A stretch of DNA of 63,966 nucleotides, filler included, from Malassezia furfur (Eukaryota), in assembly GCA_052055015.1 (NCBI GenBank). It is 3 parts of 3 records of this genome, joined end to end, with 100 filler letters (N's around TTAATTAATTAA, not from the genome) between each part and the next. Parts side by side here need not be neighbours in the genome. Positions count along the whole stretch, not along the records: positions 24,991 to 49,815 come from JBQJIT010000139.1; 2 more parts are not named here. One strand, given 5' to 3'. Shown here piece after piece: positions 1,910 to 49,675 of this stretch. The translations under genes were made by a program, and so were the position numbers. A model generated the notes under the pieces. The model ran no database searches and was not told the origin of the DNA. It worked only from the letters and a program-made list of their open reading frames with translations. Within the stretch, counting starts at the first letter, position 1. Each line of letters starts with the position of its first letter.

Positions 1910-3605
1910 TCAAGCGCCGGCAGCGCGACTGATGGGCCGCGCAGGCGCACCAGCGGCACGGCTCAGCGGCCGCGACGCGGGGCGCTTGGTGCCTGGCGCA
2001 CCCGCTGTGGGGGCTGCGTGCGCCGCATGCTCGGCAGGGCGCATGCGCGCCGGCTGCTTGTTGTTCTCCTTGGCGCTGTCCAGCTGCTCCTGCAGGTAGT
2101 CGACGAACCGCACGCCGTCCATGAGGAAGGGCATATCGTGCTCGGCTTCCCATGCAGGGATCACCCGAAGCAGCTCGTGCTCCACCTTGGGCTTCTGGAT
2201 CTTGACGCGCTTGCGCATCTTTTCCTCGCGCAGCAACCGCCCCGGATCGCCGCGGTTGTTGCGCCCAAGGAGCCGCGAGCCGTCCTGCGCACTCTCCTCG
2301 AGGGCGCGCGCCTCGTTGCAGATCTCCTGATACCGCCCAATCAGCGCAAGCAGCGGCGCACGCTGCTCGAGCATCTCGCCGAGCCGCGCGCACATCTGCT
2401 CGTGCTGCGCAAGGATCGCATCGTAGTCAAACGTCGTGTCCGATTCGGCGTCGGGCAGCTCAAGGAAGTAGGCGGGGAAGAGCGTGTGCCGCTCCGCCTC
2501 GGACATGAACAGCGCATCCCACTGCTCCCAGATCTGTTCGCGCGTCTTGGCGATAAAGAGTGTCATGTGCTGCGACTTGAGCGCGCGCATCTTGTCGAGT
2601 TCCTCTTTGTACTGGGGTCAGTGGTGGGGACAGACGTACCACGTGCACGACCTCGAGCGTGCTTCCCCGGTGATCCAGCACAAACGCATCCATCTCGGCC
2701 TCGGGCACATCGAAGCGCATCCACAGCTCGCACAGCTCGTCGTAGTACGTCTGGATGTTGGTCTCGCGCTGCGTCTTCTCCGCCTCGAGCGCGGCGCGCT
2801 TCGCGTCGCACTGTGCAAGCACGTCGTCCGTCGGCTGCAGCAACGGCGCAGCAGGGCCGTCGGCACTCGGAGCGGGCGCCTCGCTCGGGACAAACTCGCC
2901 ACGGAACGCACCGTCCTGGAGCACGGGGCGCTGCTGGGTATACCGCAAGAGCGCCGCATCCAGCGCGCCCTCCGCGCCGGGCGCCGCCTGCAGCGCCCCG
3001 TCGTCGGCGAGCGATACGGCGGGTAAGATATGCAGCTCGGCCCAGAGCTGCAATATCTCGGTAAACTGCGTCTCCATCTGCAGCTTGCGTGTGGTGTAGA
3101 GCTGCTGGACGTGCTGCCAGTGCTGCTCGAGCTGCGCGAGGCGCGCGGGCGTCACGTCCTCGTACGTGCCATGCGCAGGCCCGGGAACAGGCAGGGAGCC
3201 GCCGGCGCTCGACATACACGCGTCGAGTGTATGGATTTGGTCCATCACCAGCGTACACTGCTCGCGCTGCGCGGTGTAGGTGCGCTCGAGCCGCGCCTGC
3301 TCCTCCTCGAGCTGCGCGGCCTGCGCGAGCAGCGGCGTATCGGCCGCAGGGGTACTTTGTCGCTCTGTTCCCGTCGCTGCGAGCAGCTGTGCAATCGCGC
3401 GCTCGCGCTCTGCACACTGCTCAGCGACGCGCGCGACGTCCGCCTGGACGACGCGGAGTTGTGCGTGGACAGCATCGTGGATACACGTCTTCAACGAAGC
3501 CATCGCTTTCTCAAGCTCGGCAGGTGGACTTCCTAGCTGCGCATGAAGCGCCGCTAGTTCGGCGCTCGATGCATCGATCAACGCGCTCAGCGTTGAGGCG
3601 TCCAT
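1910..3605 (-). CDS. ASE1: Ase1/PRC1/MAP65 spindle midzone microtubule bundler; one intron 2612-2639 (28 nt); frame continues past the TGA to 1730
   Basis: MAP65 core motifs (ELCELWMRFDVP, IWEQWDALFMS, EESAQDGSRLLGR...LLREEKMRKRV, WEAEHDMPFLMDG). A GTACGT...CTGAC-CCCAG intron joins ORFs 2460..3800 and 1910..2590 in frame. Confidence 0.85.
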
Positions 3606-3727
3606 CGTGCGCCGCGATGGTCGTGGGCGCCGTGTTGCTTTCGCACGTGCCGCGCGCGCGTCACCAACACTATCACGTGATATACGCGTCGCGCGCGTCC
3701 GGGATGCGTGGGCGGCTGCAAGCGACG
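3606..3727. promoter_or_regulatory. Bidirectional ASE1 / NUD1-like promoter with TCACGTGA E-box and ACGCGT (MCB-like) site
   Basis: TCACGTGA at 3673-3680, ACGCGT at 3684-3689 and further CGCG runs within a 122-nt divergent gap. Confidence 0.5.
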
Positions 3728-6262
3728 ATGGCGTCCGAGGAGGGCACGGTGATCCACCGCTCGGACGTGTCGACGCTCCCGCCCATGTTCCAGCCGGCAT
3801 GGAAAGCGTCGCCAGCGAAGGGGCGTGAGCGGCTCAATGCGATCGGCGGCGACATGTTCTCCCCGATCAAGCTCCAGCAAATGTTTCAGTCGCCCAGCAA
3901 CAGCGTGCGGCAGCCGAGCGCGGGCAAGGGAGCTGGCGCGGGTCCGCTGCGTGCGGGGCGCACCGGCGTACCCACCACGTCGTCTTCGACCCCGCTTGCA
4001 CCGCGTGAGGTCCGCCGCGTATCGCGCGACGCGCCGCCGCCGTCGACGCCCGGCGGACCCCATGTGCCACTGCGCCTCTTCAACGTTCAGTACGACACGC
4101 GCGTTCGCAGCGGACTCGAGCAGCTCGTGGAAGAGCATGATACCCACGCCGCGGACGCCTCGCACGCCACGGACGCGAGTACGCTGCAGCACATGCGCCA
4201 GAGCAAGCGGCTGCGTCGGCACTCCAAGCCGCCGGCGTCGCCCGAGGCCGCAGCATGGCACGCGGATGCGCCCGAGGCGCCCACACCATCGGCTGCGCCT
4301 GCTGCACGACAGCGTGTCCCGCTCGCATACCGCAGCACCAACACGCCGGCCGATACGCCGCCGTCGCTGCCGCGCTCCATCCTCAAGAGCAAGCCCGAGT
4401 CGCTGGGGCGCACGCCGTCGCGGTCGATCAGCTTTGCGGACGAGCGCGGCGCGCAGATGCGCGGCGGCGATGCACATGCGACGCCGCGCGCGACGCCGCG
4501 CGTGGCGTCCGTGTCATCTGCGCACGTCACACCGCGCACCGCGCGCCTCGACACGGTGCTGGCCGAGCTCGAGGAGCTGAACGTGACGCACGACACGCCG
4601 CGGCCTGCGCGTGCGCGCCCACTGAGCGCTGCGCGTACGTATGATGCGCTGGACACGTCGACGCCGCGGGCTGCGCGCACAATCGACGCAGACCGCTCGG
4701 CGGTGAGCGGTGCGTCGTTCCGGCTGACGCGCGAGCGGCTCTTGGAGCTGCTCACGGATGCGGCGCCGTGGGAGCCCGACTGGGCGCGTCTCGCGCGCGT
4801 CGACCTGCGTGCGCGGCGCCTCGAGTCGTGCATCGGGCTGGAAGACTATGTGCCGCACGTCGAGGAGCTCTGGATCGACCACAACCGCGTGGCGTTTGCG
4901 ACGGGCGTGCCGCCGTCGGTGCGCACGCTCACTGCGTCGCACAACTGCTTCTCGGAGCTCGCGTCGTTTGCGCACCTGCGCCGCCTCGAGGTGCTCGATG
5001 TGAGCGCGAACGAGCTGACGTCGCTCGCGGCGCTGGCGGATCTGCCTGCCCTTGCGGAGCTGCGTGCGTCGCACAACCAGCTCACGAGCCTGCACGGGCT
5101 CGAGCAGCTCACGCGCCTCGAGTGCGTCGACGTGCGCGACAATATGCTCGGCGGCGCACTGGCGCTCGGTGCGCTGCACTGGCCGCGCATCACCACGCTG
5201 CGCGTCGCGCGCAATGCGCTCACGCGCCTCGAAGGCCTCGCGACGCTCGCGACGCTCGAGACACTCGACGTCGAGGACAATGCGCTGACGCGCCTCGGCG
5301 TGCCGCTCGCGCGCCTGCACACCCTCCGGGTGAGTGGCAACGCGGCGCTGCACACGCTCGACATTGCACGCGCGCCGCAACTGCGCACGCTGTACGCAGA
5401 CCGGTGCAGCTTGGCGCGTGTCGACGGCGTCGAGGACGCCGCGGCACTCGAGCGCTGGTCGCTGCGGCAGCAGCACGTGCGCCTCGCCGTGCCGCTCGCG
5501 AACCCGGCGTCGCTCGCGCGCCTGTTCTTGTCCGGCAATGCGCTGACGGATGCCGAGGTGCTGGGCGCGCGCGCGCCGCGCCTCGTCTACCTCGAGCTCG
5601 CGGGGTGCCAGCTGACGAACGTGCCGCGCCGCCTGCCGCGCCAGACACCCGTGCTGCGCACGCTCAACCTCGACCACAACCCGCTCGCCGCGCCGCCGCC
5701 GCTCGCGTCGTGGCCGCGGCTCAAGCGGCTGAGCGTCGTGGGATGCCGCGTGCCGCGGCTCGAGGCGGTGGTGCACGCCATCGACGGCCACGACGCCCTG
5801 TGCGTGCTCGACGTGCGCATGAACCCATGCACACTCGGGCTCTACCCGCCGGTGCTGCTGCCCGTGCCGGCCGGCGCCGCGGACGACGAAGTGCTGCCGC
5901 CCGTGCCGCACCCATCCATCGCGCAGCCCGACACCGAGGCGGCGCTCGACGCGGCGCTCGCGGCGCGGCGTGCTGCGGCGCAGGCGCTTGCGGACCGCTC
6001 GCAGTTCCACAAGCGCACCATGCTCCTGGCGCCCGAGCCGACCGACGACGTGCGCGAGCAGTCTGGGCGGCGCGCTGCGGCGCTGTTTGCCGCGGCCGAC
6101 GAGCGGTTCGTCGCCACGCTCCCGCCCAAGATCGCAACGCAGCGCGCCGTGTACCGCGGCCTGTGCGGGATGGCGTGTGCGTCGCTCACGTGGCTCGACG
6201 GCCTCGAGATTGCGGATGCCGATGTGGCGCGCGCGGCGCGCAATGTACACAGAACACGGTAG
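3728..6262 (+). CDS. Leucine-rich-repeat spindle pole body scaffold, Nud1/Cdc11-like
   Basis: Ser/Pro-rich N-terminus with [11 protein letters not shown] and [11 protein letters not shown] motifs, followed by a long LRR array ([39 protein letters not shown]) and an LRR cap (LTWLDG). Confidence 0.7.
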
Positions 6263-6264
6263 GA

Positions 6265-7085
6265 CTACGTAATGCGACGCAGCGCGCGCTCCACGAGCCG
6301 GTCGAGCATCGTGGAGCTCAACACGCCGTCGCTGCCCGACGCCGCGTCCAGGCGCTGGAACTGGCCGAGGATCGAGCGGTAGACGTACTTGCCGACCATG
6401 TCGAACTCGACGTTCACCGCGTCGCCCACGCGCTTCGTCGGCAACACAATGTGCTCCTGCGTGTGTGGGATGAGCATCACGGTGAAGTCGACCGTCTCGG
6501 TCGTGGGGATCACGTCGTCGGGCGCCGTGAGCGCACCGCCGTTCGGCGGCGAGACGTCGATGAGCGTCAACGATGTGCCGTCGAGCGTCACAAAGCCCTT
6601 GGGCACAAGGTAGGGCGACAGCGTCGAAGGCAGCGGCAGCGTATCGACACCAGGGCGCGGCGCGTCGTACTGCAGCCGCAGCGTCAGCGTCAGCGCCGAC
6701 TCGTTCGGCTCCATCGCCACCAGGCGCGCGATGGTATCGACGTGGCCCTGCACGATGTGGCCACCGAACCGCGTGTGCGAGGACATGGCGCGCTCGCAGT
6801 TGACGCGCGAGCCAGGCGCCAGGTCGCCCAGATTGCTGCGGAAAAGCGTCTCGGGCGCCAAGTCCACACGGAACCAGCCCGCCGACGCGTCAAAGTGCGT
6901 CACCGTAAGACACACACCGTTCACCGCAATGCTGTCGCCGGTATGACAGTCATCCAGGATCGACGCCACGTCGCCAATCGTCACGGCGTACGAGCCGCTC
7001 TCGGCATCGTGCTGCGTCACGTCCGTCACTCGCCCAATCGTCTCGACTGCGTCAGTGCGCCGCACGTACCCAGGCCCGTGAACAT
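6265..7085 (-). CDS. RIB5: Riboflavin synthase; intron 7047-7069 (23 nt)
   Basis: Splicing restores the invariant N-terminus MFTGLVETIG. Lumazine-binding repeats: [46 protein letters not shown]. Confidence 0.95.
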
Positions 7086-7119
7086 GGTGGAGTTGTGCAC
7101 GTCACGTGTCGTCACCACC
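7086..7119. promoter_or_regulatory. 34-nt bidirectional RIB5 / BUD31 intergenic region centred on GTCACGTG
   Basis: GTCACGTG at 7101-7108 between two well-defined start codons, each preceded by CCACC. Confidence 0.55.
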
Positions 7120-27430: not shown

Positions 27431-29200
27431 CTACTCCTCCTCGTCCTGGGCGGAGCGCACCGCGGCTTGCTCGACGGTGATGACGAGCACCGCGCGGCGC
27501 ACCCAGCACCGGCGGCGCGTGTACTTGCCGATGCCGTTGACACGGCTCAGCTTCTCCCACGAATTGCCGCCGTACTGCCACCCCTCGGGGTCGACGTCGG
27601 TCGCCGTCGAGGCGAGTGACGCGGGCCGCGCGACGGTCGCCAGCTCCTCGGGAAGCTCCTGCTCCGCAGAGGCGAGCGCTGTGGCCTCCTGCTTGTTGGG
27701 CGCGGGCCCCTTGGACGCCGCGTCTGTCGCGGCCTTCAGCCGGTCGGTCGCGTCGAGCACGGCGCCGGCGTCGTCGACGTGCTTTTCCTCGGCGAAGCGC
27801 GAGCTGAGACGCTGCGCCTCGGACGCGGGCATCGTCGACGCCGGCGTGTACACGGTCGAGGTGATCGACTGTGCGCCGGCGACGCGCCACTCGGGGTCGA
27901 CCCAGTGCCACTCGGCGGTGCGCACGTCGTCGCGCCCCGGCTTCGCGGAGGAGGGGACACGCGCGCGGATCGTCGTGGGCAGCGTGAACGACGACGGGGG
28001 CGCCACGGCGTTGTTGTCCCCGTCGGACCAGCTCGGCCGCTCGTTGGGGAGCAGGGCGGCGGTCCAGTCCAGCCCGATCCACCACCGCTGGTTCTCGTAG
28101 ATTTCAAACTGGAACACGGTCTCGTGCGTCGCGTCGCGGCGCGTGTCCTGCACCAGGGCCGTCGAGGCGCCGTGCAGCTGCTTGGGGGCCACCGAGCGCC
28201 AGAAAGCGCGCACATTTTCGCTGCCGCTCAGCACACGCACGGCGCCCATGACGATGCGGCGCACAAGCGCGCTGCGCCACAGCGCGGCGCGCAGCAGCGT
28301 CGCCCACGGCGAGCACCACGTGAGCGCAAGGCACCCGACCACCAGCAGCACATGGCGCACGCTCAGCGCGGCGATCGGGAAGGGCGGGAATACTTGCAGC
28401 GCGAGCGGCCACTTGCGCACGCGGAGTGCACGCACGAGCGCACACGCATGCGGCACGACGTGCTGCGTGAGCGCGGCACTGGCCCGCTGGCCCATGTCGT
28501 AGATGCGCGGCGCATGCGTCGCCACGAAGGCTGCGGCGTGCGGTGCGGCGCGCGTCGTGACGTAAGTGCGCGCCGCGGCGACGGGCGCACTGCGGGCAAG
28601 ATGTCCGAGCGTGGTGTGCACGTAGTAGTACGGCAGGAGCCACTGGCTCGGCGGGAGCATCACGAGCAGCCAGATCGGCCACGACGCCAGGAGAAAGACG
28701 ACGAGATGGCTCGTGCCGGCGCCCTGCACCTGTGCCTGGACCAGCGCATGCAGCGGGTGGATAAGCGTCTCGCACACGGCCGCAACAAAGTCGGAGATGT
28801 CGCACAGCTGTGCGATGGCGCGCTTGATCTTGCGGCTCGTCGCGCCGTCGTCGGCCGCCGGCGCCTGGCCCGAGACGCGGCTAAAGGAGCCACGCAGCGA
28901 GAGGTAGCCGATGTACGCGAGGATCACCGCTTGGGGCGCGTACCGCAGCACCTCGTACCCGTACAGGCACGTCAGAATGTAGCCGAGGAGCAGCAGCCAC
29001 GACTGCACGCGCTGCCGGTAGCCCCCGCGCCAGGTCGCAATCACGAGGAAGGCGTGCACGGCGTCGATCGCGGGGCCCATCGCCACCAAGAGCTGCATCA
29101 TGCTTGGCGGAACACGCTCAATAATGTCCATCAGCGTCATGGTCTGCACCGACTTCTTCGCGCTGCGCTCGCTCAGCGCGTCGGGTCGCTTGCCGGCCAT
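27431..29200 (-). CDS. Pex23/Pex24/Pex30-family peroxin with dysferlin-like domain
   Basis: Hydrophobic N-terminal half; dysferlin motifs FEIYENQRWWIGLDWTAALLPNERPSWSD, WHWVDPEW, DPEGWQYG, YTRRRCWVRRA. Confidence 0.85.
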   Translation of the reverse strand: MAGKRPDALSERSAKKSVQTMTLMDIIERVPPSMMQLLVAMGPAIDAVHAFLVIATWRGGYRQRVQSWLLLLGYILTCLYGYEVLRYAPQAVILAYIGYLSLRGSFSRVSGQAPAADDGATSRKIKRAIAQLCDISDFVAAVCETLIHPLHALVQAQVQGAGTSHLVVFLLASWPIWLLVMLPPSQWLLPYYYVHTTLGHLARSAPVAAARTYVTTRAAPHAAAFVATHAPRIYDMGQRASAALTQHVVPHACALVRALRVRKWPLALQVFPPFPIAALSVRHVLLVVGCLALTWCSPWATLLRAALWRSALVRRIVMGAVRVLSGSENVRAFWRSVAPKQLHGASTALVQDTRRDATHETVFQFEIYENQRWWIGLDWTAALLPNERPSWSDGDNNAVAPPSSFTLPTTIRARVPSSAKPGRDDVRTAEWHWVDPEWRVAGAQSITSTVYTPASTMPASEAQRLSSRFAEEKHVDDAGAVLDATDRLKAATDAASKGPAPNKQEATALASAEQELPEELATVARPASLASTATDVDPEGWQYGGNSWEKLSRVNGIGKYTRRRCWVRRAVLVITVEQAAVRSAQDEEE

Positions 29201-29266
29201 GGTGGGGAAGTTGCACCACCTCCACACCCGGCCACACGCACGACTGCCGGACCACGTGGCACTACG

Positions 29267-31107
29267 ATGGCCGAGGCGCCGTCGTCGCAGGCGGCGCGCA
29301 CGCGCGTCGCTGTGCTCGCGTCGTTGGTGGTGGTGATCGTCGCGGCCCTGCCGGTGTGGTGGCACACGACGACCATCACGCGCCTGTCTCTCCCCATCCA
29401 GCCCGTGCACGCATGGGAAAAGCGCGGCGTACGTTGTTCCGTCGACTAACGCAGGCTTGCCCGGTTCGCGCCGCTGTGCGCGTCGCCCTGGCGCCCCAGG
29501 GCATGTCGGTTGGCGCGGGCGTGTGCCGTGCGCTGGAGCAGCGCCTTGGTGCGCTCGATCCGGCGGGCGCCACATGTCTCGACTGGCACGTCGAGGCAGA
29601 CGCATGCACGGCCGGCGTCGCTTCCCCTGACGCTCCGCGCACGTCGCACGCTGCAGCGGCGTACACGGTGTCGCTGTACCCCCAGCACGCATGCAGAGAC
29701 ACGTTGCTTGCCGTGTGTGTGCCGGACGACGCGAGTGAGGATGACGTGGCTGAGGCCGTCGCGGCGCAGCTCGCGCCGCTCCAAATCGACGCGCGGGCCA
29801 CGCACGACCTTGCGCGCATCCAGTACGCCAAGGTGGTCCGCGTCGTCTTTTCGCTGCTCAACGAGGATGCGAGCCAAGGTGGCGCAGCGAGCGGCTGGGA
29901 CCTCCAACAGGGGCTCGCTGCGCTCGAGGTGTTCGACGGCGCACTGCCGCCCGGCCTTGCGCCGCTCGCGCCGCTCGCGCGCTTGCTGCGTGCGCTGCGC
30001 GACGTATACGACGTGCAGCTCGAGAGCCAGGTGCAGTGGTATGCGCCGCTCGAGTTTGCGCCGACCGCCGAGGTCGTTGCCGCCGAGGCGCCCGACGACA
30101 ACCTCGGCGCCGCGACCGCGTCGGAGGCCGAGGCCGTGCCCGAGGCCGAGGCTGTGCCCGAGGCGGTGGCTACGACGGCCGAGACCGCGTCCGACGCCGC
30201 CCTGCCGGTCGCCTCGGCAGCGCCGGTGCCGTCTCGGGTCGAGCACTTTGCGTCGCTCGACGACGTGCGTGTGTTTGTCAATTCGGCGCAGTGGAGTCTT
30301 GAGTCTTACGGGCTGGCCGATGCACCGAACAACGCGACGGTACACGCCCAATTCGCCGAGCAGACGCTGCACCTCGTGCTCTTCCTCCCGAGCGACGCGC
30401 ACCGTCCGCTGCGCATCCGCGACCCGGTGACGCACGCGACCATCGCGAACCCTGCATGGCTTGTGCCGCAGTGGGGCGGTGTAGTGATTTGGAACCGCGC
30501 GGCGTCGGACAGCGGCCTGGCACCGCCGCTGTCGCTCGATGAGCTGGCAGAGCCGCTGCGTCTGTTTACAGCGCAGCTCGCACAGCTGCTGGGCATCGCG
30601 GAGCCGCACCTCGTCGGCAGCGAGACGACACTCTACCTGGCTGTCCAAGGTCTCTTGTGGCGGCGCACGCTCGAGTCGGTGCGCAGCACCATCGAGACGC
30701 TGAGCAGTACGGTGCGCCTCGTCGACAAAATTCCGAACCTCGGCGTGGACACGACGGTGCGTGATGAGTTTGCGCGGGCGCTTGAGCTGCTCGACGAGGT
30801 ACGTGTGCATCTCACCCAGCTCGATCACGCCGTGCACAACACGACGCGCGGCACGTCCTTCCCCGAGGCACTTGACACGGCGTTTGCCGCACAGATGCAT
30901 GCATCGCGCGCGTTCTTTGACCCAAGCATGCTTGCGATGCTCTATTTCCCGGACGAGCACAAGTACGCGGTGTATACCCCCTTGTTTGGGCCGCTCTTTG
31001 TGCCGCTCGTGGTGGCGATCGTGCGCGAGGTCCGCCGCCGGCGCCGGCTGGCGCGCACGGCCCCCACGCTGACTAATTCACCACAACGCGTAGATGTCGC
31101 GGCGTAG
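29267..31107 (+). CDS. GPI17: GPI transamidase subunit PIG-S/Gpi17; introns 29429-29454 (26 nt) and probably 30799-30819 (21 nt, in frame)
   Basis: LPVWWHTTTITRLSLP N-terminus, WLVPQWGGVVIWN, and AFFDPSMLAMLYFPDEHKYAVYTPLFGP C-terminal signature. Confidence 0.92.
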
Positions 31108-34557: not shown

Positions 34558-35568
34558 ATGCCCAAACGCAAGGAGCGTGAGAACGAGGCGGTCGAGGCAG
34601 AGCTGCCGCTCGCCAAGTACCTTGCGTCCACGGAAAAGCGTGTGCGGGACCGTGCCATTCGGTCCCTGTCCGCCTTTCTGCTGCGCAGTGCGCAGGAAGG
34701 CGGTCTGGCGATGTCGCCGCTGGAGATCGCCAAGCTCTGGAAGGGCATCTTTTACTGCTTCTGGATGTCAGACAAACCGCTCGTGCAGCAGGCCCTGGCA
34801 CAGGAGCTAGCCAACCTTGTGCTACATGTGGCCGGCCAGGGAGCCGACGTCGATACGGAGCTGGACGCGAAGCAGAGCGAAGCGCGTGCGCTTTCTGCGC
34901 TCGACTTTTTCCACGGGTTCTGGGTAACGATGGAGGCCGAGTGGCTCGGCATCGACAAGTTCCGCATCAACAAATACTACCTGCTGATGCGGCGGATGCT
35001 GCATGCCGCGCTTGTCCTACTCCAGACGCACGGCTGGAAGGAGCCGATCCTGCAGCGTTTTGCGCTGGTCATGGGCGGCAAAGACGGCCCGCTCACAGCG
35101 AACAATGTGCGCGTGCCGGAGAGCATCACGTACCACGTATGCGACATCTTTTTGGACGAGCTGGAGCGTGTCGCCGAGGCCGAGGAAGGGACGATACCTA
35201 TGCTGCCGCTGCTCATTCCCTTCCTGGGCCTGGCGGCAAAGAGCACGTCAAAGCGCGTCTACGAGCGCGTGATGGGCAGCGTCATTACGCCGTTCCTCGA
35301 GGCAGCACAAAAGGCAATGCGGGGGAAAGAGCCCGCCTATCCTGCACTGCTGGCGCACGCGGCCGTTTCTACGGAGGAGGACGGAGACGATGAGGAGGAC
35401 GACGACGAGGATGACGAAGAAGAAGACGGCAACGGCGACCAAAAGCGCATCGCGAAGCTGCGGCGCAGCCTTCTCCGTGCTGCCTTTATGATCGCGAGCG
35501 GGCCTGATACCTATGCGCCTAGCCGGCGGAAGCTGTACGCGCTGTGGCAGGCCGAGATGCAGCCGTAG
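34558..35568 (+). CDS. RRP1: Ribosome biogenesis protein Rrp1/Nop52
   Basis: LASTEKRVRDRA, KLWKGIFYCFWMSDKPLVQQ, EWLGIDKFRINKYYLLMRR. Confidence 0.93.
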   Translation: MPKRKERENEAVEAELPLAKYLASTEKRVRDRAIRSLSAFLLRSAQEGGLAMSPLEIAKLWKGIFYCFWMSDKPLVQQALAQELANLVLHVAGQGADVDTELDAKQSEARALSALDFFHGFWVTMEAEWLGIDKFRINKYYLLMRRMLHAALVLLQTHGWKEPILQRFALVMGGKDGPLTANNVRVPESITYHVCDIFLDELERVAEAEEGTIPMLPLLIPFLGLAAKSTSKRVYERVMGSVITPFLEAAQKAMRGKEPAYPALLAHAAVSTEEDGDDEEDDDEDDEEEDGNGDQKRIAKLRRSLLRAAFMIASGPDTYAPSRRKLYALWQAEMQP

Positions 35569-35632
35569 CGCGACCATCGATCTGTTTAGTCATAGAAGGC
35601 TTCTCCAGAGCCTGTGCGCACATCTGCTGGCC

Positions 35633-36558
35633 ATGGACGCGGAGAGCACCGAGGCGACGCAGCGGCTAGGCCCGTCGTTTACAACGTCGCTGATCGCGGG
35701 TGCCGCATCGGGTATGTCGGTGGATCTGCTCTTCTACCCCATCGACACCATCAAAACCCGGCTGCAGAGTGCCCAAGGCTTCTGGAAAGCCGGCGGCTTC
35801 ACCGGCGTGTATCGCGGCATGGGCAGCGTCGCGGTCGGCAGCGCGCCGGGCGCATCGATCTTTTTTGTGACGTACGAGTCGCTCAAGTCGTACCTCTCGC
35901 GTACCTTCTTCCCTGGCCATGCCAAGGACGCCAAGGCGATGTCGCCGTTCGTGCACATGACCTCGGCATCGATTGCCGAGGTTGCGGCGTGCCTCGTGCG
36001 TGTCCCCACCGAGGTAGTCAAGTCGCGGCAGCAGACCGCTGCGTATGGGCGCATTTCGTCGCTGACTGCGTTCCGGCAAGTGGTCGCGGGCGAGGGCGTC
36101 GCGGGGCTCTACCGTGGCTTTGGCGGCACCATTCTTCGCGAGGTGCGTCGCGTGCTCACCCAGATTCCGTTTACGTGCATCCAGTTCCCCTTGTACGAGT
36201 TCCTCAAGCACAAAGCCGCGGGCCGCACCAAAGAGCCGACGTGGTGGCAGGCGGCAGCGACGGGCAGTGTTGCGGGTAGTTTTGCGGCCGCCGTGACGAC
36301 GCCGCTAGATGTGATCAAAACGCGTATCATGCTCGCCAAGGTACGTCCAGCCCACTCACGCAGACGAACACGGGCGAGGCCGCGGTCGACACGCGCATCA
36401 GCGCGACGCTCTCGCGCATCGTCCAGCAGGGCGGCGTCAGCGCGCTCTTCGCCGGTGTCGTGCCACGCACACTATGGATTGGGTTGGGCGGCGCCGTGTT
36501 TTTGGGCACGTTTGATGTGGCTGCCAAGCTACTGGAGCCGAGCGCTTTTGGCAAGTAG
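35633..36558 (+). CDS. PET8: Mitochondrial S-adenosylmethionine carrier; introns 36143-36163 (21 nt) and 36341-36363 (23 nt)
   Basis: Carrier motifs PIDTIKTRLQ, RVPTEVVKSRQQ, REIPFTCIQFPLYE, TTPLDVIKTRIML, PRTLWIGLGGAVFLG. Confidence 0.9.
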
Positions 36559-38087
36559 GCTCGTATGTGTCGCAAGCTGCTCGACAACGTCCAGCACAAG
36601 ATCGTCGTGGCCCCACTGCGTCGCGAACGAGATGCCCACCGGCAGTGCGACGCCGTCGTCGTCTTGTATGGTCTGGGCAGCCGGTGCACTGAGCACCGGT
36701 ACACCCGCGAGGTTGGCATACGTGGTGAGTGCGTCCTGTGCACACTCAAACGCGGCGTCCTCGGCGAGTTTGGGCGCGCCCCGTAGCGCCGTAGGATGCA
36801 CAAGCACGTCCACGCCTTGCGCGTGTCCTGCTGTGCCTGTGCGCAGATCTGTTTCGCGCCAGTGCTCCGCGAGCTCATCCATGAGCGCACAGCGCAGCGA
36901 GACGGCTGCCATGTAGTAGCTGTCCCACGCCTCGGTGGTTACGGCGTAGGTGCCAAGCAGGATACGCCGCTGCACCTCAGCCCCGAATCCGACCGAGCGT
37001 GCCTTGGCGATCGTCGCATGGAATGTGGCCTCATCGGGCACAGCAATGCCTGGGTCAGCACAGGCGACGTACCGTATCGCATGCCGTCGTAGCGGCTCAG
37101 GTTGCTACTGGCCTCGGCGAGCGCAAGCACGTAGTAGGCGCCAATCGCGTGCTCCATTGCGGGCACACGTACTGGAACGATCTCGGCGCCCAGTGACTGC
37201 ATCGCCTCCAGAACGTCGTCGGCAATCTGCACAACATTGGGGTGCACTTCCTCGGGATACATCTCCGCCGGCACCCCGACGCGCAGGCCCGCGAGCGGAG
37301 CGTTTGGGTGGCCGAGTTTGGCACGCCGCGCGCCACACAATTCTGCAAGGCGCGCACGCAGCTGCGCATCGATACACGTCTCGTCGCGGGGGTCTTCGGT
37401 GGCGACCGCGTGCAGGGTTGTTCGCACGTCGTCGACGTTGTTGGCGAGGATGCCGACAGTGTCGAGCGAGTCGGCATACGACACGACTCCCCAGCGACTG
37501 ATCATCCCGTACGACGGTTTGAAGCCGTACACGCCGCAAAAAGCGCCCGGCAGGCGCACCGAGCCGCCGGTATCGGTGCCAATGGCGACGCGGCACAGGC
37601 CGCCGGCCACGGACGCCGCGGCGCCGCCTGACGACCCGCCTGGTGCGCGCATCGCCACGCCATCAAGGTCCGGTGCTGTAACATCGCTGTATATGGCCGG
37701 GTTGGCCACGGGGCCATGCACCGAGTGGGCATTGAGGGTGCTGGGTCAGATCGCGACGTACCCCATCGCGAACTCGTCGCAGTTGGTGCGCGATGTGATG
37801 TGCGCACCTGCTGCATTGAGTGACTCAATGACAGACGCATCAAACGGCGATCGATACTCTGTGTGAGACACGCACGTACCGAGCAGCATGCGGCTCGAGC
37901 AGGTGAGTGGCACGTCCGCCATCGCAATGTTCTCTTTCACGCTCACCTGCCACCCAGCCATGGGACCTGTGGGTGCACCACGCGGCGTGAGCCGCTGTGT
38001 GATTGCATTGAACGGGTCGTGCTGCCCGCGCTGGAACGTCGACACGCTCCGCACGCCCCGCACGGCCCTCACGCTGCGAAGCGCCAT
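36529..38087 (-). CDS. HER2: Mitochondrial Glu-tRNA(Gln) amidotransferase subunit A (GatA/Her2/QRSL1); introns 37859-37879, 37741-37761, 37050-37072
   Basis: Amidase signature TNCDEFAMG, PGGSSGGAAA, IGTDTGGSVRLPG, GFKPSYG; GatA-specific EASSNLSRYDGMRYG and GFGAEVQRRILLGTY. Confidence 0.9.
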
Positions 38088-38124
38088 GGACAAAGGCAGA
38101 CCACGTGGCATCGCTCCACCCATC

Positions 38125-38919
38125 ATGTCGTCGGTGGCGATCGCTGCGCCGCCCAGGGGTGCGCCTCGCCACACCGTGTTTCTGGAGCTGTTTGCGCCGT
38201 TTGCGCCTACATGCCTTACGCTGGATGGTGATGCAACTGGACGCGATATCCTGTGCGGAATCACCGAGTCGCTGCGGCTATCGCCGGCAGATGCGGCGCT
38301 GCTCCGCCTCACGACGCGCGGCGGACGCGAGGTGACGCCCACGACGCGGATTGATGCGCTGAGCGACGGCACACATATCTCGCTCGAAGTGCGTATGCGC
38401 CACTGTGGTGGAAAGGGCGGCTTCGGCAACCAGCTCCGCGCCGCAGGTGCGCGCATGGCGAACAAGAACGGCAATGTCGACTCGTGCCGTGACTTGAACG
38501 GCCGCCGGCTGAGCACGATCAAGGAAGCGCAGCGCCTTGCCGAGTACATGGCCCAGGCTCCCGAGCGACAGAAAGCACTTGACGAGGCACAGGCAAAGAA
38601 ATACGCCAAACTGGAGAAGATGCTGGGCCACCAGCCAAAGTCGGCCAAGGACTTCGAGGTCGCCGCCGAGAAGCTTGATGATGCAGGCGAACACCTCGGT
38701 ACCGATGACGCTGCGGATGCGCCGCCCGAGGCCGGCCCGTCGCGCGCGCCGAAGCGCAAGGCACGCATCGACGACCACGAGTATGTCGAACAGAGCCGCG
38801 AAATTGTCGACAATGTGCGCAGTGCCGTTGCGCTCGCAATGAAGAAGAAGAAGAAGAAGGCGTCAAGTAAGGCGCCGGCAACGACCGCACCTAGCGCCGT
38901 CGAGGCCAAGAATGTATAG
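38125..38919 (+). CDS. SDE2: Sde2 ubiquitin-fold-activated splicing/silencing factor
   Basis: N-terminal UBL followed by GG|KGGFGNQLRAAGARM...SCRDLNGRRLSTIKEA. Confidence 0.92.
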   Translation: MSSVAIAAPPRGAPRHTVFLELFAPFAPTCLTLDGDATGRDILCGITESLRLSPADAALLRLTTRGGREVTPTTRIDALSDGTHISLEVRMRHCGGKGGFGNQLRAAGARMANKNGNVDSCRDLNGRRLSTIKEAQRLAEYMAQAPERQKALDEAQAKKYAKLEKMLGHQPKSAKDFEVAAEKLDDAGEHLGTDDAADAPPEAGPSRAPKRKARIDDHEYVEQSREIVDNVRSAVALAMKKKKKKASSKAPATTAPSAVEAKNV

Positions 38920-38930
38920 TACAGGTATAG

Positions 38931-44419: not shown

Positions 44420-45634
44420 ATGCCGAGCTACTCACAACTCCACCGCACCGCCTCGAGCGCATCGCTGCGCCAGCGCCCACTCAGCCCAGTCCTGTACCGC
44501 ACGGTGCCGCACTCTGCCGGAAGCCATCGCCGTGCTGCCTCGGTGCCGAGCGACGGCGAGCACGGCGGTGTGCCGCCGTGCGCCGCGACCATCGTCCTCC
44601 GCCCGCATGCGGGGAGTGATAAGGCGCAGGCGAGCGCGAACGTGTTTTCGTTCGTGCCGGACGATGCAGGCACCAGTGCACCTACCGAGACGCTTCCTGC
44701 CGTGATTCTCGGCCCACACGGCACCATCACAGGCTACATCCAGATGCCCGTCACCGCTGCACCAGGGCGGCGGCACCTGACGTCCAAGCCGCGCGGGCCC
44801 CTCCGGCGCAAGGCGGTCGCACCGCCGCCGGAGTTGTACACGCGGGCGCTGCCTTCGCCGCCGCCTGTGCCACCCACGCCGCCTGTGCTCTGTGCGCCGC
44901 CATGCAAGAGCGCAACGAACCGGGCAGGCCTTGCGCGCATTGCGAGTGTGCGGCTCACGGACGAAGCGCCAGGGGATGTACCGACCAGCGTCACCGCGTC
45001 ACCGCGCGTACACGTCGACCAGCTCGGGCAGTGGCAGAAAGCGTTTGCAGCAAACCCTGCGCCGCCGAGCGCTGCGCCGCGCAGCACGTTGGAGGAATGG
45101 CAGAGTGCGTTTGGCACGTACGTGCCCGAGGTTGAACGCCCCACGCGTCCCGAGAGCACATCGCCGCCGCGACAGCCAAGTGCGTTCGGTGCGCCAGTGC
45201 CGCCCGTGTCGCCGAGCGCGCGGCGGAAGCCGTCGCGCATGGGCATGTGGAAGGACATGCTGCGCCCCGCGTCGCGCCGGCACCGCTCGGACACGTACAC
45301 GCCGCAGCACGACGTCGACGTATTTGCGCGTGCGCCACTCAAAGGTGCCGCACATCTGCGCATCAGCAGCCCCGTGCTGGCTGCGACCGGACGGCGCGAT
45401 GTGCCGGACGTGCCGCAGGACGAGGAGGCGCCATGCGAGGCGTGTGCATCGCCGACGCACCGCCTGCGGCAGTGTTTCACGACACGCATCACGCTGCAGC
45501 ACACCGAGCGCACCGTGGTCGAGCGCGTACCAGGGTACGGCGCACCGCCCCAGCGCCCATGTGCAGCCGATGTGCCGGCGACAGGTGCGCACGGGGCGCC
45601 GGCGCGCGAGGTGGAGGAGCGTAGTCTCTTGTAG
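44420..45634 (+). CDS. Pro/Ser-rich hypothetical protein
   Basis: 404-aa ORF filling the space between DUG1 and the next gene; no recognised domain. Confidence 0.6.
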   Translation: MPSYSQLHRTASSASLRQRPLSPVLYRTVPHSAGSHRRAASVPSDGEHGGVPPCAATIVLRPHAGSDKAQASANVFSFVPDDAGTSAPTETLPAVILGPHGTITGYIQMPVTAAPGRRHLTSKPRGPLRRKAVAPPPELYTRALPSPPPVPPTPPVLCAPPCKSATNRAGLARIASVRLTDEAPGDVPTSVTASPRVHVDQLGQWQKAFAANPAPPSAAPRSTLEEWQSAFGTYVPEVERPTRPESTSPPRQPSAFGAPVPPVSPSARRKPSRMGMWKDMLRPASRRHRSDTYTPQHDVDVFARAPLKGAAHLRISSPVLAATGRRDVPDVPQDEEAPCEACASPTHRLRQCFTTRITLQHTERTVVERVPGYGAPPQRPCAADVPATGAHGAPAREVEERSLL

Positions 45635-45636
45635 CC

Positions 45637-47167
45637 ATGGGTTTGGTGGACGTCGAGGCGCTCGTGGCCTACGACCTAACGCATGTGCAGTGTACGTGAG
45701 CCGCTGATGCAGACCATGCACACGATCCGTGGGGCCCTTGGTGGGCATTTGTCACGCTATCGCCCGTGCTGGTGCTGACCGTGTACGTCGCGGTCTTTTT
45801 GCACCGCCGCGAGATGACGTACCTCAATGTGCTCGTCGGTCAGGTGCTGTGCGAGGTGATCAACGGCAAGCTCAAGCGCCGTATCCAGCAGCACCGCCCG
45901 ACAAATGTGCTTGGCTCGGGGTACGGCATGCCGTCGTCGCACTCGCAGTTCTGCGGTTTCTTTGCCGCGTTCTGGGTGCTGCACCTTGTCGCGCACGCGC
46001 CGCAGCGCCGCGGCACGTACGCACGCAGCTATGCGGCACGCGTCGCCGATCGTACCGTGGCGCTCACGCTGCTCGTTGGACTCGCAGCCCTCACGTGCTA
46101 CTCGCGGTAGGTCGCGCGACTCACTCAGGCACTATCTCGTGTACCACACGCCAGCGCAGATCGGGGTCGGCGCTTCGCTCGGCGTGGTGCTCGGCACGGC
46201 GTACTACCTGGCCACGGAGGCCATCCCCCGTAGCGCGCCGGCGCACTCGGCGCTTGGCCGCGCGCGCCGTGCGTTTTACACGAGCCGCGTGAGCCGTGCG
46301 CTGCGCCTGCGCGACGCCTGGACCGTCTGGGCGGACGGCAGCGAGGACCACACGTATACGCGGTGGCGCGCCGAGCTCACCACCGATCCGCGGGCGGGCG
46401 CCGTGGCCCTGCGCGGCGATGCGCCTGCCCACGTCAGCATGATGCTGCGTGCGCTCCAAGAGGCCGACCAGTGCGACGCGGTGCCGACTGCCTTCTCGGT
46501 CGGGTGTGTGATTGCGGCGGCCGGCGCGTCGCTGAGGGAGCCCGGAACGCCGCTCGATGCGGTGCCCGTGCTTGAGCCGTACGCGCTGTTCACCGGCTTC
46601 TCGCGCGAGCTGCCCGGCAACACGCACGCCGAAGAGTGTGCCCTTGAGAAGCTGGTGCGGTACTGCGCGCGCACGCCCGAGGTGCGCAGTGCGCAGGCCG
46701 CTGCGGATGCCGCGCACAATACGCCGCTTCAGCTGCTCCTGTACACGACCATGGAGCCGTGCTCGCAGCGTCTGAGCGGCAACATGGCGTGTGTGGAGCG
46801 CATTCTGCGCTTCAACACGCGCCCGCCCGTGACGACCGCCGCGTGGCTGCTGCGTGCGAATGTGCCGCTTGCGAGCCATGGTGCGGCGCCCGTGCGTGCC
46901 GACACCACACTGCGTCCGCTGCAGATCGCGCTCGTGGTCCAGGGCGTGCGCGAGCCGGACGACTTTGTACTGTGCGAGGGCCAGAACCGGCTGCGCGACG
47001 CGGGCATCGACGTGGTCACTGCGTCGCCCGCCGCGGCGCCCGGCGTGCTCGGCCTCACGCTGCCGAGCCTGTCTTCGATCGCGATCCCGGTGCGTGCGTC
47101 GAACGCAACCGACTGGCTCGAAGACGCGTGCCTGCGTATGGCCAAAAAGGGACATGCTACAAAGTAG
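45637..47167 (+). CDS. Fusion protein: N-terminal dolichyl-pyrophosphate phosphatase (CAX4/DOLPP1, PAP2 family) plus C-terminal Rib2-type zinc deaminase; introns 45692-45712 and 46107-46128; about 495 aa
   Basis: PAP2 motifs KRRIQQHRP, GMPSSHSQF and SRHYLVYHTPAQ (the last restored by intron 2), then without a stop AFSVGCVI, TGFSRELPGNTHAEECAL, YTTMEPCSQRLSGNMAC, GVREPDDFV. Confidence 0.85.
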
Positions 47168-47179
47168 TGTACAGGGTAT

Positions 47180-48515
47180 CTAGCGCGGACGCCGGCGCGG
47201 GCCCAGGACCAGTGGGCCGTTCCATGCCAGTGTGCTGCTCTCGCGCAACGGTGCGGCTGCCGGGGCGCGTGCCGCATGTGCCGGGGCGCGCGGCGCAGCC
47301 GCCAGCACGCCGCCCGGCATCGGAAAGTCGTCGTCGTCGTCGTCGCCCCACGTGCCCGAAACGGGCGGCACAGGTGCTGGCGACGAGGAGCCCCCGGCGC
47401 GCATGCGCTTCACAGTTCGCGCCGGAGAGCTCGAGAGCTCCTCGGCGTCGCTTGTGCGCGCCTCGAGCTCGGCCAGACGCTTGCGGTACGTCGCCTCGGT
47501 CTGCGACTGCTGCGACTGCTGCGCACGAGCGGCGCGGTACTTTTCCTGGGCGCGCCGCACGGCCGCCTGCAGCTCGCGCATTTGGTCTGCCATGTGCTGA
47601 TTGCGCGCGCGGATCGCTGTAAGGGCCGCCGTAGCATCGGCCGCCTGCTCCTCAGCCTGCTGAATGCGTGCAGCGGCCTCCGCCTCGCGCTTCTCGGCAG
47701 CCTCTTCGCGGAGCGCCGCGCGGCGCACAGCCTCGACGCTCGCAGCCTTGGCGGAGGCGACGGCGTCCTGCATCCGTGTCTGTGCTGCGTCATGTTCGCG
47801 CTCGAGCGCCGCCTCACGCGCGGCCAATGCCTCGGCGCGTTCCTCGACGGCGGCGGCGTCGCGCGCCGCGTGTTTTTGCCGCTGGCGCACGGCGTGTCGG
47901 TCCTTGCACACGGCACGGGCCTCGTCGTCGAGTGCACGCCGTGCCTCGCGCAGTGCGTCTTCGGCTTCGCGATTGCGGACCGCATGCTGTTGCGTCTGGG
48001 TATAGGCCTTGGCAAGCGTCAGCGACACGCCCTCGACGTGTGTGACCATGTCGTGGAGCGCGTCGAGGACACGCTGCATGGCCTCGGCTGCCTTGGTGTC
48101 GCACACAGCGTTGCGGCGGAGTGCCTCGGTGACGCGAAGCTGCACGCGTCCCATCGGCGCTGCGCGAAGACCGTGCGCGGCCATGGCATAGGACTGCATC
48201 GCGGTGACCAAATCGCATGCGGCTTCCAACACAGGCTGTTCCGGGTCACGCACGTCTGTGTGGTGCGCCGCGACGTACTGGTGAAAGTCGGACGCGTCCG
48301 CAGGCCACAGGGGAAGCACCTCGGCGGGTGTGGCCGGTGCCTTGCACAGCGGACACCCGCCCTTGAGCGCGTCATGGCAGCGCGACGCGAGCCAGCTGCG
48401 CACGCATGGCGCGTGGAAGACGTGCCCTGGGTGAGTGGTGCGCCAACGTACCGCACGGCAGCGCCGCAGGCCGGGCCTCGGGCGTGTACGGCTCGAGGCA
48501 GATCCCACACGCCAT
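47180..48515 (-). CDS. RING-H2 plus coiled-coil putative E3 ligase; intron 48427-48451 (25 nt)
   Basis: Spliced N-terminus MACGICLEPY...LPCGHVFHAPCVRSW...CPLCK followed by a long coiled coil. Confidence 0.85.
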
Positions 48516-48611: not shown

Positions 48612-49675
48612 ATGCCGTTGAGTGCGGAGAAGCGACGGCGCTCGCCGCGAGAGAAGCGCAGCTGGGACTATGTCGTGCGCAGCGGCCTCGCCGGCGGGAT
48701 TGCTGGATGTGCGGTAGGTCGTCGACTAACACGCAGGCCAAGACCACGATTGCGCCGCTCGACCGCGTCAAAATTCTGTTCCAGGCGGCGAACCCCGACT
48801 ACCAAAAATACAGCGGGCGATGGCTCGGCGTGATTGACGCGGGGCGCAACATCGTCAAGCAGCAGGGTGTCGTGGGCCTATTTCAAGGGCACAGCGCAAC
48901 GTTGCTCCGCATCTTTCCGTACGCGGCGATCAAGTACATGGCGTACGACGCACTGCACCTGGCGCTCATGCCGACGCCGCGCGACGAGACGAGCGCGCGC
49001 CTGTTCTTGGCCGGTTCCATGTCCGGTGTGCTGTCCGTCTTTCTCACGTATCCGCTCGAGCTGATCCGCGTGCGCCTCGCATTTGATACACGCACTTATC
49101 CGCACCACAAAAACCTCCGCAACGTGATCGACACCATTTATCACGAGGGTGCCACGACCGTTGCGGCCGACGGGCGCGTCGCCGAAAGCCCTGCATCGAT
49201 GCTGCTGAACCGCGTCCCGCTGCTCAAGTTCTACCGCGGGTTTTCTGCGACGGTGCTCGGCATGATTCCGTACGCTGGCACCTCCTTCCTCGTGTTTGGG
49301 CGGTGCAAGACGGCGCTGTACCACGGTCTTCTCCACAAGGAGACCACAGGCGAGGTACTGCCGGGCTACGAGCACGTCGCGCCGCTCTGGAACGTGAACC
49401 GCACCGTGGTCGACCTGACCGCCGGCGCCTTGGCGGGCGCCATTTCCCAGACGGCCTCATACCCTCTCGAAGTCGTTCGCCGGCGGCAGCAGATTGGCGG
49501 CATATTGCGCCCGTCCAGCATCCTCACGCTGCGCGAGACGATCCGCAGCATTTACCGGACGCACGGGTGGCGCGGCTTCTACGTCGGGCTGTCGATTGGG
49601 TATATCAAGGTGGTGCCGATGACCGCCATCAGCTTTGCGGTGTGGTCCGCAATGAAACGCCGGCTGGGTATCTAG
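48612..49675 (+). CDS. LEU5: Mitochondrial coenzyme A carrier (Leu5/SLC25A16-like); intron 48714-48736 (23 nt)
   Basis: [72 protein letters not shown]. Confidence 0.9.

Follow-up and report, generated by a model that had tools for sequence, protein, structure and literature searches.

What role a Rib2-type riboflavin deaminase plays when it is joined, in one reading frame, to a membrane phosphatase of the CAX4/DOLPP1 type is the question raised by a locus of Malassezia furfur. The stretch of DNA analysed here, hereafter the window, comprises 63,966 nucleotides (nt), filler included, of assembly GCA_052055015.1; the gene concerned lies in the part taken from record JBQJIT010000139.1, at 45637-47167 on the plus strand, and positions are those of the window throughout. 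A preliminary description of the locus had put the PAP2 phosphatase half forward as a candidate for the unassigned phosphatase of fungal riboflavin synthesis, with tethering of a riboflavin enzyme to the membrane of the endoplasmic reticulum (ER) as a fallback. Our analysis favours the fallback: with a probability that we put at roughly 0.7, the gene encodes two complete enzymes in one polypeptide, a cytosolic Rib2 deaminase being anchored to the ER by a normal phosphatase that works on the luminal side. Helix parity, the distribution of charges and the unaltered state of the PAP2 half all point this way.

The fused gene and its reading frame

The gene runs from an ATG at 45637 to a TAG at 47165-47167. 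When two introns are cut out by coordinate, 1488 nt remain, that is 495 codons and a stop, with no internal stop. It is laid out as follows.

45637-45691, plus strand: exon 1, with the ATG at 45637; residues 1-18 and base 1 of codon 19
45692-45712, plus strand: intron 1, 21 nt, GTACGT...CAG, GT..AG, phase 1
45713-46106, plus strand: exon 2, membrane helices 1-4 of the PAP2 half, with motif 1 (45874-45900) and motif 2, PSSH (45931-45942)
46107-46128, plus strand: intron 2, 22 nt, GTAGGT...CAG, GT..AG, phase 2, splitting the R150 codon of the SR motif
46129-46375, plus strand: exon 3, first part, with the remainder of motif 3 (to 46159), the last membrane helix (about 46151-46234) and a basic tail
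46304-46366, plus strand: dolichyldiphosphatase tail motif RLRDAWTVW..Y..W, residues 209-229
46376-46426, plus strand: short variable linker, residues about 233-249
46427-47167, plus strand: Rib2-type deaminase domain and stop, residues about 250-495
46439-46444, plus strand: internal ATGATG (M254-M255), within the first helix of the deaminase domain
46625-46633, 46757-46792 and 46943-46969, plus strand: deaminase motifs HAE, PC-x9-C and GVREPDDFV, respectively

The limits of the last helix were transferred from the model of a homologue, the annotated Malassezia psittaci protein P0004 (490 amino acids, aa). Residues 1-494 of the spliced product align with residues 1-490 of P0004 at 61% identity, with four gap positions, none of which falls at residues 18/19 or 150/151, where the introns lie. 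Removal of intron 1, which carries CTGAT 5 bases ahead of its 3′ splice site, yields an ungapped alignment over residues 18/19; removal of intron 2 entails a one-base frame shift and joins ...CYSR to HYLVYHTPAQ, again without a gap. The N-terminus encoded by exon 1 lines up with the annotated starts of Malassezia and Ustilaginales homologues. The two-intron model with one frame of about 495 aa, as first proposed, was thus recovered, and so were all the motifs listed for it: K73-x6-R80-P81, P92-S-S-H95 and S149-R150-x5-H156-x3-Q160 in the PAP2 half, and H316-A-E318, P360-C361-x9-C371 and G422-VREPDDFV-430 in the deaminase half.

Local DNA has 55-72% G+C, rising to 65-72% over the gene, and long open frames are numerous on both strands. 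Because of this composition an open frame by itself says little. What takes the gene model beyond chance is that the spliced product matches P0004 from end to end and that the interdomain stretch has been kept. Homology is what decides the matter, and from it alone the splice junctions and the continuity of the transcript are predicted. Very short introns have been described for Malassezia genes (PMC7426719), and in the annotation of M. restricta the minimum intron length was set to 15-20 nt (PMC6473144).

The same composition is the main reason to ask whether two adjacent genes are merely being read as one, either because stops are scarce in G+C-rich DNA, with its many long spurious frames on either strand, or through a missed intron. 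Separate models in Tilletia (see below) could be taken in the same sense, as could two Malassezia models of differing extent, P0009, which lacks motifs 1 and 2, and P0021, which starts in the last membrane helix. However, once intron 2 is removed the PAP2 frame meets no stop before 47165, the interdomain stretch, being the native tail of the phosphatase, shows conservation of its protein sequence, and independent annotations of more than 15 named species give the fused model. An artefact of this kind therefore appears extremely improbable. As for the two deviating public models, P0009 (M. vespertilionis, 422 aa) and P0021 (M. pachydermatis, 309 aa) look incomplete, likely because tiny introns or starts were wrongly set.

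The C-terminal half is a Rib2-type deaminase

Pfam was run on the unspliced exon translations of the window rather than on the spliced protein. The exon 3 translation matched Inv-AAD at 89.5 bits and dCMP_cyt_deam_1 at 30.4 bits, both over their cut-offs. For the PDB sequence search and for Foldseek, P0004 was used in place of the window protein. The only PDB relatives at E<0.1 were 7drz and 7dry (E about 5e-13), both of them entries of the Rib2 deaminase from Aspergillus oryzae (PMC8256712). From an alignment of 25 database proteins (A1) we computed an AlphaFold model of P0004, with a mean predicted local distance difference test score (pLDDT) of 80.3 and a predicted template modelling score (pTM) of 0.58. 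When this model was submitted to Foldseek, A. oryzae Rib2 entries took the three top places (target TM-score 0.66), ahead of bacterial RibD/RibG; its membrane half retrieved the Bacillus subtilis PAP2 phosphatase 5jki (0.53) and LpxE 6ebu. The Rib2-like assignment made in the preliminary description is thus borne out by Pfam, and A. oryzae Rib2 comes first by both sequence and fold.

The zinc and substrate contacts reported for A. oryzae Rib2 are F26, T53, N59, H61, A62, E63, E100, C102, R105, L106, S107, C112 and E136 (PMC8256712). Twelve of these 13 could be mapped in P0004, as F, S, N, H, A, E, E, C, R, L, S and C (T53 being replaced by S); the window protein has all of them too, and in A1 the mapped columns show conservation of 90% or more. 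E136 lies outside the aligned stretch and is unmapped; its counterpart is presumed to be E425 in GVREPDDFV. The zinc motif, defined as HxE and PC-x8-9-C (PMC8256712), is found as H316-A-E318 and P360-C361..C371. To judge from its sequence, the C-terminal half is a complete Rib2-type deaminase with predicted activity.

The likeness to stand-alone A. oryzae Rib2 (PDB 7dry-7ds1) extends to both the HxE and PC-x9-C elements and to the mapped contacts with the pyrimidine, ribitol and phosphate of the substrate. The partner is what differs: in the known forms Rib2 is joined to a soluble pseudouridine synthase, of the S. cerevisiae type, or to none, whereas here the partner is a multi-pass ER membrane enzyme. 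The yeast fusion, mentioned in the preliminary description, is documented in the A. oryzae Rib2 paper (PMC8256712) and by database protein P0078. Malassezia versions also carry extra inserts within and after the deaminase core, unlike those of Ustilaginales.

A side observation concerns the Pfam label. PF18785 (Inv-AAD, 'Invertebrate-AID/APOBEC-deaminase') gave 83-130 bits against 29-69 bits for dCMP_cyt_deam_1 in all seven deaminase-domain proteins tested, and it also outscored the latter in named RIB2/DRAP deaminases (Ascoidea, Fomitopsis, Tilletia). Since named RIB2 proteins score likewise, the label is a property of the Rib2 family and not an APOBEC-like sign, and it could mislead automatic naming.

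The N-terminal half is predicted to be an ordinary dolichyldiphosphatase

The exon 2 translation reached only 20.4 bits with PAP2 (PF01569), under the cut-off of 27.2, motif 3 being cut off by intron 2; the fused homologues P0004, P0027, P0125 and P0126 score 41.9-49.6 bits. NCBIfam, a prokaryote-centred library, gave nothing for the exon 2 or exon 3 translations. The superfamily is marked by three motifs, K-x6-RP, PSGH-like and SR-x5-H-x3-D/Q; all three are present in the spliced product and are kept at 90% or more in A1. The nearest ESM Atlas clusters to residues 1-235 of P0004 bear the automatic name Dolichyldiphosphatase (0.96 and 0.95), and a structural TM-score of 0.82 was obtained with an arthropod Atlas cluster. 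The Atlas also holds two clusters of the fused architecture, with 53 members each.

A search of 1.84 billion representatives with the A1 profile gave 4001 matches at E<=0.001, 248 of them at E<=1e-30. Ranking next below the fused proteins and fragments of these were stand-alone proteins of about 190-270 aa. Names were looked up for 20 rows only, among them 13 stand-alone PAP2-only rows, nine of which were named: five as dolichyldiphosphatase (Paraphysoderma, Podochytrium, Phytophthora and two JGI records), three as 'PAP2-domain-containing protein' (Trametes, Ramicandelaber, Lichtheimia), and one, from Tilletia horrida and the sole member of Ustilaginomycotina among the nine, with the UniRef name Dolichyldiphosphatase. 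Compared with six stand-alone proteins from outside Ustilaginomycotina, the window protein shows 34-38% identity (blastp E 1e-34 to 1e-48); those compared include the proteins of Paraphysoderma, Podochytrium and Phytophthora, which bear the names dolichyl pyrophosphate phosphatase 1 or Dolichyldiphosphatase 1, and those of Trametes and Lichtheimia. The PAP2 assignment of the preliminary description accordingly finds support in the motifs, the Atlas clusters and these stand-alone relatives.

The stand-alone proteins of Trametes and Paraphysoderma (P0143, P0144) terminate in the tail motif that precedes the linker here, of the general form R/C-L-R-D..W/V..W..Y/W..W. Because stand-alone enzymes end with the same tail, the fused protein can be said to hold a whole dolichyldiphosphatase. 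For a comparison of active sites we set 24 fused sequences (23 from the database and that of the window) against 37 stand-alone ones, hand-picked from 150 listed rows of the A1 profile search for a match in the first half of the profile, shorter or partial rows being left out. Conserved in both sets were 33 positions, every motif residue included, and a single position was fixed differently, T146 in the fused as opposed to V in the stand-alone sequences. The residues give no sign that the active site has been rebuilt for a new substrate.

By its sequence, then, the N-terminal half is a predicted ordinary dolichyldiphosphatase of the CAX4/DOLPP1 type. It shares with Cax4/Cwh8/DOLPP1 the three PAP2 motifs (the Q that closes motif 3 is typical of the family), some five membrane helices and the RLRD.W.VW..Y..W tail. 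Unlike these stand-alone members, which measure about 220-260 aa, it is followed beyond the tail by a whole further enzyme of about 245 residues.

Predicted membrane topology and probable anchoring of the deaminase

The first half of the P0004 model contains five long helices (26-48, 53-75, 94-112, 125-152 and 158-185). Motifs 1 and 2 lie between helices 2 and 3, while motif 3 (149-160) lies between helices 4 and 5 and enters helix 5. As the deaminase follows helix 5, which begins at motif 3, it would sit on the opposite face of the membrane from the PAP2 site, as argued from helix parity. In the window protein, the tail holds 12 lysines and arginines and loops 1 and 3 hold 2 and 4, respectively; the first 25 residues have neither. 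Such a distribution fits cytosolic loops 1 and 3 and a cytosolic tail. The active site of yeast Cwh8 is luminal (Fernandez et al. 2001, as cited in PMC12505894). Most likely, therefore, to the extent that a predicted model can tell, the two active sites face opposite sides of the membrane.

The linker varies in length and is poorly conserved in A1, with fewer than 20 residues in Malassezia and many tens in Tilletiaria and Violaceomyces. Residues 211-240 of P0004, ahead of the deaminase, were modelled with block mean pLDDT of 49-60. These features fit a flexible tether rather than a joint active centre.

The arrangement that we favour may be pictured as follows. Residues 1 to about 232 would form an orthologue of the ER dolichyl-diphosphate phosphatase, with five membrane helices and the catalytic motifs in loops that face the lumen; after a short flexible linker, residues from about 250 to 495 would place the Rib2 deaminase on the cytosolic C-terminal tail. 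This deaminase would convert 2,5-diamino-6-ribitylamino-pyrimidinone 5′-phosphate to 5-amino-6-ribitylamino-uracil 5′-phosphate in the cytosol, where its soluble substrate is made, while the phosphatase site would lie in the lumen, where dolichyl diphosphate is released. Each half would thus do its usual job in its usual compartment, as two independent activities, and the net effect would be to tether the deaminase to the ER on its cytosolic side and to couple its production to that of the phosphatase. A modest rationale for the fusion may be stabilization: the authors of the A. oryzae Rib2 study considered that fusion may stabilize the deaminase (PMC8256712).

Several points weigh against this interpretation. 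Membrane orientation, the activity of both halves and the integrity of the protein are inferred, the orientation from the predicted model of a 61%-identical homologue, the charge counts and the cited yeast result, and the single full-length product from the frame and its conservation. The retention of the fusion across the subphylum could reflect a functional link between the halves. Moreover, Cwh8 of Candida albicans has been reported to be active on farnesyl diphosphate too, so that the family is not strictly single-substrate (PMC12505894). Finally, a further CAX4 or RIB2 copy may have escaped notice. None came up under a Malassezia or Ustilaginales name, but the reach was limited: for CAX4 it comprised the 20 named profile rows and a search with residues 1-232 of P0004 (lengths 127-406, 331 candidates), which is too insensitive to exclude a stand-alone gene. 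Of its four matches, three were pieces of the fused gene and the fourth was a JGI dolichyldiphosphatase of 182 aa.

Is the PAP2 half the missing riboflavin phosphatase?

The opposite proposal is that the PAP2 half dephosphorylates 5-amino-6-ribitylamino-uracil 5′-phosphate, by direct hand-over from the deaminase or as a second activity, and so fills the unassigned fungal step. That this step lacks an assigned enzyme, as the preliminary description had held, agrees with a 2025 review, in which the fungal phosphatase is given as 'non-identified yet' (PMC12542839). A fusion of two enzymes can mark consecutive steps of a pathway, this one has been kept in three classes, and acceptance of farnesyl diphosphate by a family member (PMC12505894) suggests some latitude in substrate.

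There is also a precedent within the superfamily for chemistry of this sort. Glucose-6-phosphatase is a PAP2 enzyme of the ER membrane with a luminal site, and it hydrolyses a soluble sugar phosphate in the ER lumen; the fold can thus act on such a substrate. However, it needs a dedicated transporter for that substrate, and no kinship to the fusion protein closer than the superfamily is evident from the sequence.

Against the proposal stands, above all, the position of the deaminase on the opposite face of the membrane, since its product, a soluble phosphate ester, would have to be imported into the lumen and its dephosphorylated form re-exported. The PAP2 half shares 33 conserved positions with stand-alone dolichyldiphosphatases, with one consistent difference, and has retained the whole tail of the family, and no stand-alone CAX4 with a Malassezia or Ustilaginales name came to light that would free this copy for another task, which is weak evidence given the reach of the searches described above. 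The linker is variable and poorly modelled, which does not speak for channelling, and in other fungi Rib2 is joined to plainly unrelated partners, such as pseudouridine synthase in yeasts. Furthermore, the enzymes known for this step are all soluble: haloacid dehalogenase (HAD) family members in E. coli, B. subtilis, Bacteroides and Arabidopsis, and a histidine phosphatase and an inositol monophosphatase in Aquifex aeolicus (PMC13151069). They belong to other superfamilies and have only the general chemistry, hydrolysis of a phosphate ester, in common with the PAP2 half. Pfam detected no HAD, histidine phosphatase or inositol monophosphatase domain here, only the PAP2 and deaminase families.

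The candidacy of the PAP2 half, by channelling or moonlighting, consequently does not stand up well to the opposite-face deaminase, the resemblance to stand-alone enzymes and the low-confidence linker, and this more exciting functional reading is unlikely, indeed very much so. A contribution of the PAP2 half to dephosphorylating the deaminase product, whether in the lumen after import or through a site that can be reached from the cytosol, would be if anything slightly less probable. Were it true, the phosphatase long missing from fungal riboflavin synthesis would be at hand, and a PAP2 enzyme would for the first time have a place in the vitamin B2 pathway. The fusion offers a cheap test of the idea, though the evidence points against it.

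Distribution and history of the fusion

When 7999 candidates were scored in a search with the exon 3 translation, 118 proteins were retrieved, of which 30 contain both Pfam domains. Within Malassezia the fusion was found in M. psittaci, M. vespertilionis and M. cuniculi; for Malassezia sp. CBS 17886 the precomputed Pfam annotation lists PAP2 only, and the deaminase motifs are visible in A1. Nine Ustilaginales also have it (Kalmanozyma, three Sporisorium, Testicularia, Pseudozyma hubeiensis, two Ustilago and Melanopsichium). The A1 profile search added fused proteins from Pseudozyma flocculosa, Tilletiaria anomala and Violaceomyces palustris, and a 624-aa protein of Jaminaea pallidilutea belongs to the 90%-identity cluster of P0132, whose single match spans both halves of the profile. 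These additions bring in Exobasidiomycetes (Georgefischeriales, Microstromatales) and the Violaceomycetales of Ustilaginomycetes, so that the fusion is spread over three classes of Ustilaginomycotina. Its conservation across Malassezia and the wider subphylum, raised as a check in the preliminary description, is therefore well documented. Among the 118 proteins, none carrying a Malassezia or Ustilaginales name was an additional deaminase of different architecture.

Genome compaction, which the preliminary description had noted as able by itself to fuse adjacent genes, was considered for Malassezia and set aside: the fusion also occurs in Ustilaginales, Violaceomyces, Tilletiaria and Jaminaea, and the fused proteins from outside Malassezia have longer linkers and inserts than those from within it. 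With this distribution, the fusion is ancient.

Tilletia departs from this pattern, with stand-alone deaminase models of 211-242 aa. In T. horrida the PAP2 gene (proteins P0133/P0268) and the deaminase gene (P0048/P0278-P0280) bear consecutive locus tags in three strains (e.g. OC834_006572/OC834_006573) and consecutive protein accessions in a fourth. The locus represents either an unfused state of neighbouring genes or a fused gene split by annotation. The fusion may have originated early in Ustilaginomycotina from two adjacent genes, or else the genes may have been split later in Tilletia; it would have been retained since.

Outside the subphylum the deaminase stands alone or with other partners, pseudouridine synthase in yeasts being one. 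Single models also join a Rib2-type deaminase to Sedlin_N, acetyltransferase, SET, fructosamine kinase, PhyH and PF26545 (P0059, P0087, P0089, P0099, P0114 and P0119); these are precomputed Pfam labels on unverified gene models. If real, they would make the deaminase a frequent fusion partner in fungi.

One polypeptide or two?

A fused frame might still give rise to separate proteins if the deaminase were started internally, at the ATGATG at 46439 or from a promoter within the gene, or if the linker were cleaved; the fusion would then amount to a shared transcription unit. M254-M255 lies near the start of the deaminase, with a methionine at the second position common in homologues, the linker is flexible and modelled with low confidence, and T. 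horrida is annotated with two separate adjacent genes. Overlapping transcription units are, besides, to be expected from the tight gene spacing, an upstream frame ending 2 nt before the ATG of the fused gene. However, the methionine pair lies inside the first helix of the deaminase, and the stand-alone enzymes of Tilletia (P0049, P0048, P0047) start 15-30 residues further upstream, so that initiation at M254 or M255 would trim the domain. Neither the window sequence nor any of the 25 A1 database proteins is interrupted by a stop between the halves. Separate products thus seem doubtful, though they deserve to be taken seriously, and we retain the anchored, one-piece deaminase as the preferred interpretation.

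Implications for annotation and pathway reconstruction

Literature searches that paired RIB2 or riboflavin with CAX4 or dolichyldiphosphatase, Ustilago or Malassezia brought up no description of the fusion among the papers listed, judged in part by title and abstract, and this union of two well-known enzymes is apparently undescribed. The interest of the gene lies mainly in an annotation trap, an ER-anchored riboflavin enzyme and a character of Ustilaginomycotina. In databases the fused proteins are named 'related to CAX4', 'Dolichyldiphosphatase' or 'hypothetical protein', and a riboflavin deaminase is thereby hidden, across the smuts, Malassezia and their relatives, in a gene named only for its other half. 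Because the gene is named after the dolichyldiphosphatase half, a pathway reconstruction based on names can miss RIB2. Provided that the protein remains intact, a cytosolic vitamin pathway would have one of its steps tied to the ER membrane. The fusion is, in addition, a rare genomic character common to three classes of Ustilaginomycotina.

Neighbouring genes

The fused gene is closely flanked on both sides. An upstream open reading frame (ORF) of 404 codons without a Pfam match (44420-45634) ends 2 nt before its ATG, and a convergent minus-strand ORF with a weak RING-H2 match ends at 47180, 12 nt past its stop. With spacing this tight, untranslated regions must overlap adjacent coding sequence.

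Three other genes of the window each extend over two open frames that match successive parts of one Pfam family.

1913-3833, minus strand: MAP65/ASE1
27620-31104, plus strand: PIG-S
36942-38930, minus strand: amidase

Tiny frame-shifting introns of the kind present twice in the fused gene could account for this split state.

An open frame at 6268-7101 on the minus strand contains two lumazine-binding domains (Pfam Lum_binding, 128 bits over two stretches), the architecture of riboflavin synthase (RIB5). A link between this frame and the fused gene was considered and is treated as coincidence, the two being about 39 kb apart in a eukaryote.

The window also includes two genes of the mitochondrial carrier family, at 35492-36913 and 48701-49672, both on the plus strand, the latter about 1.5 kb downstream of the fused gene.

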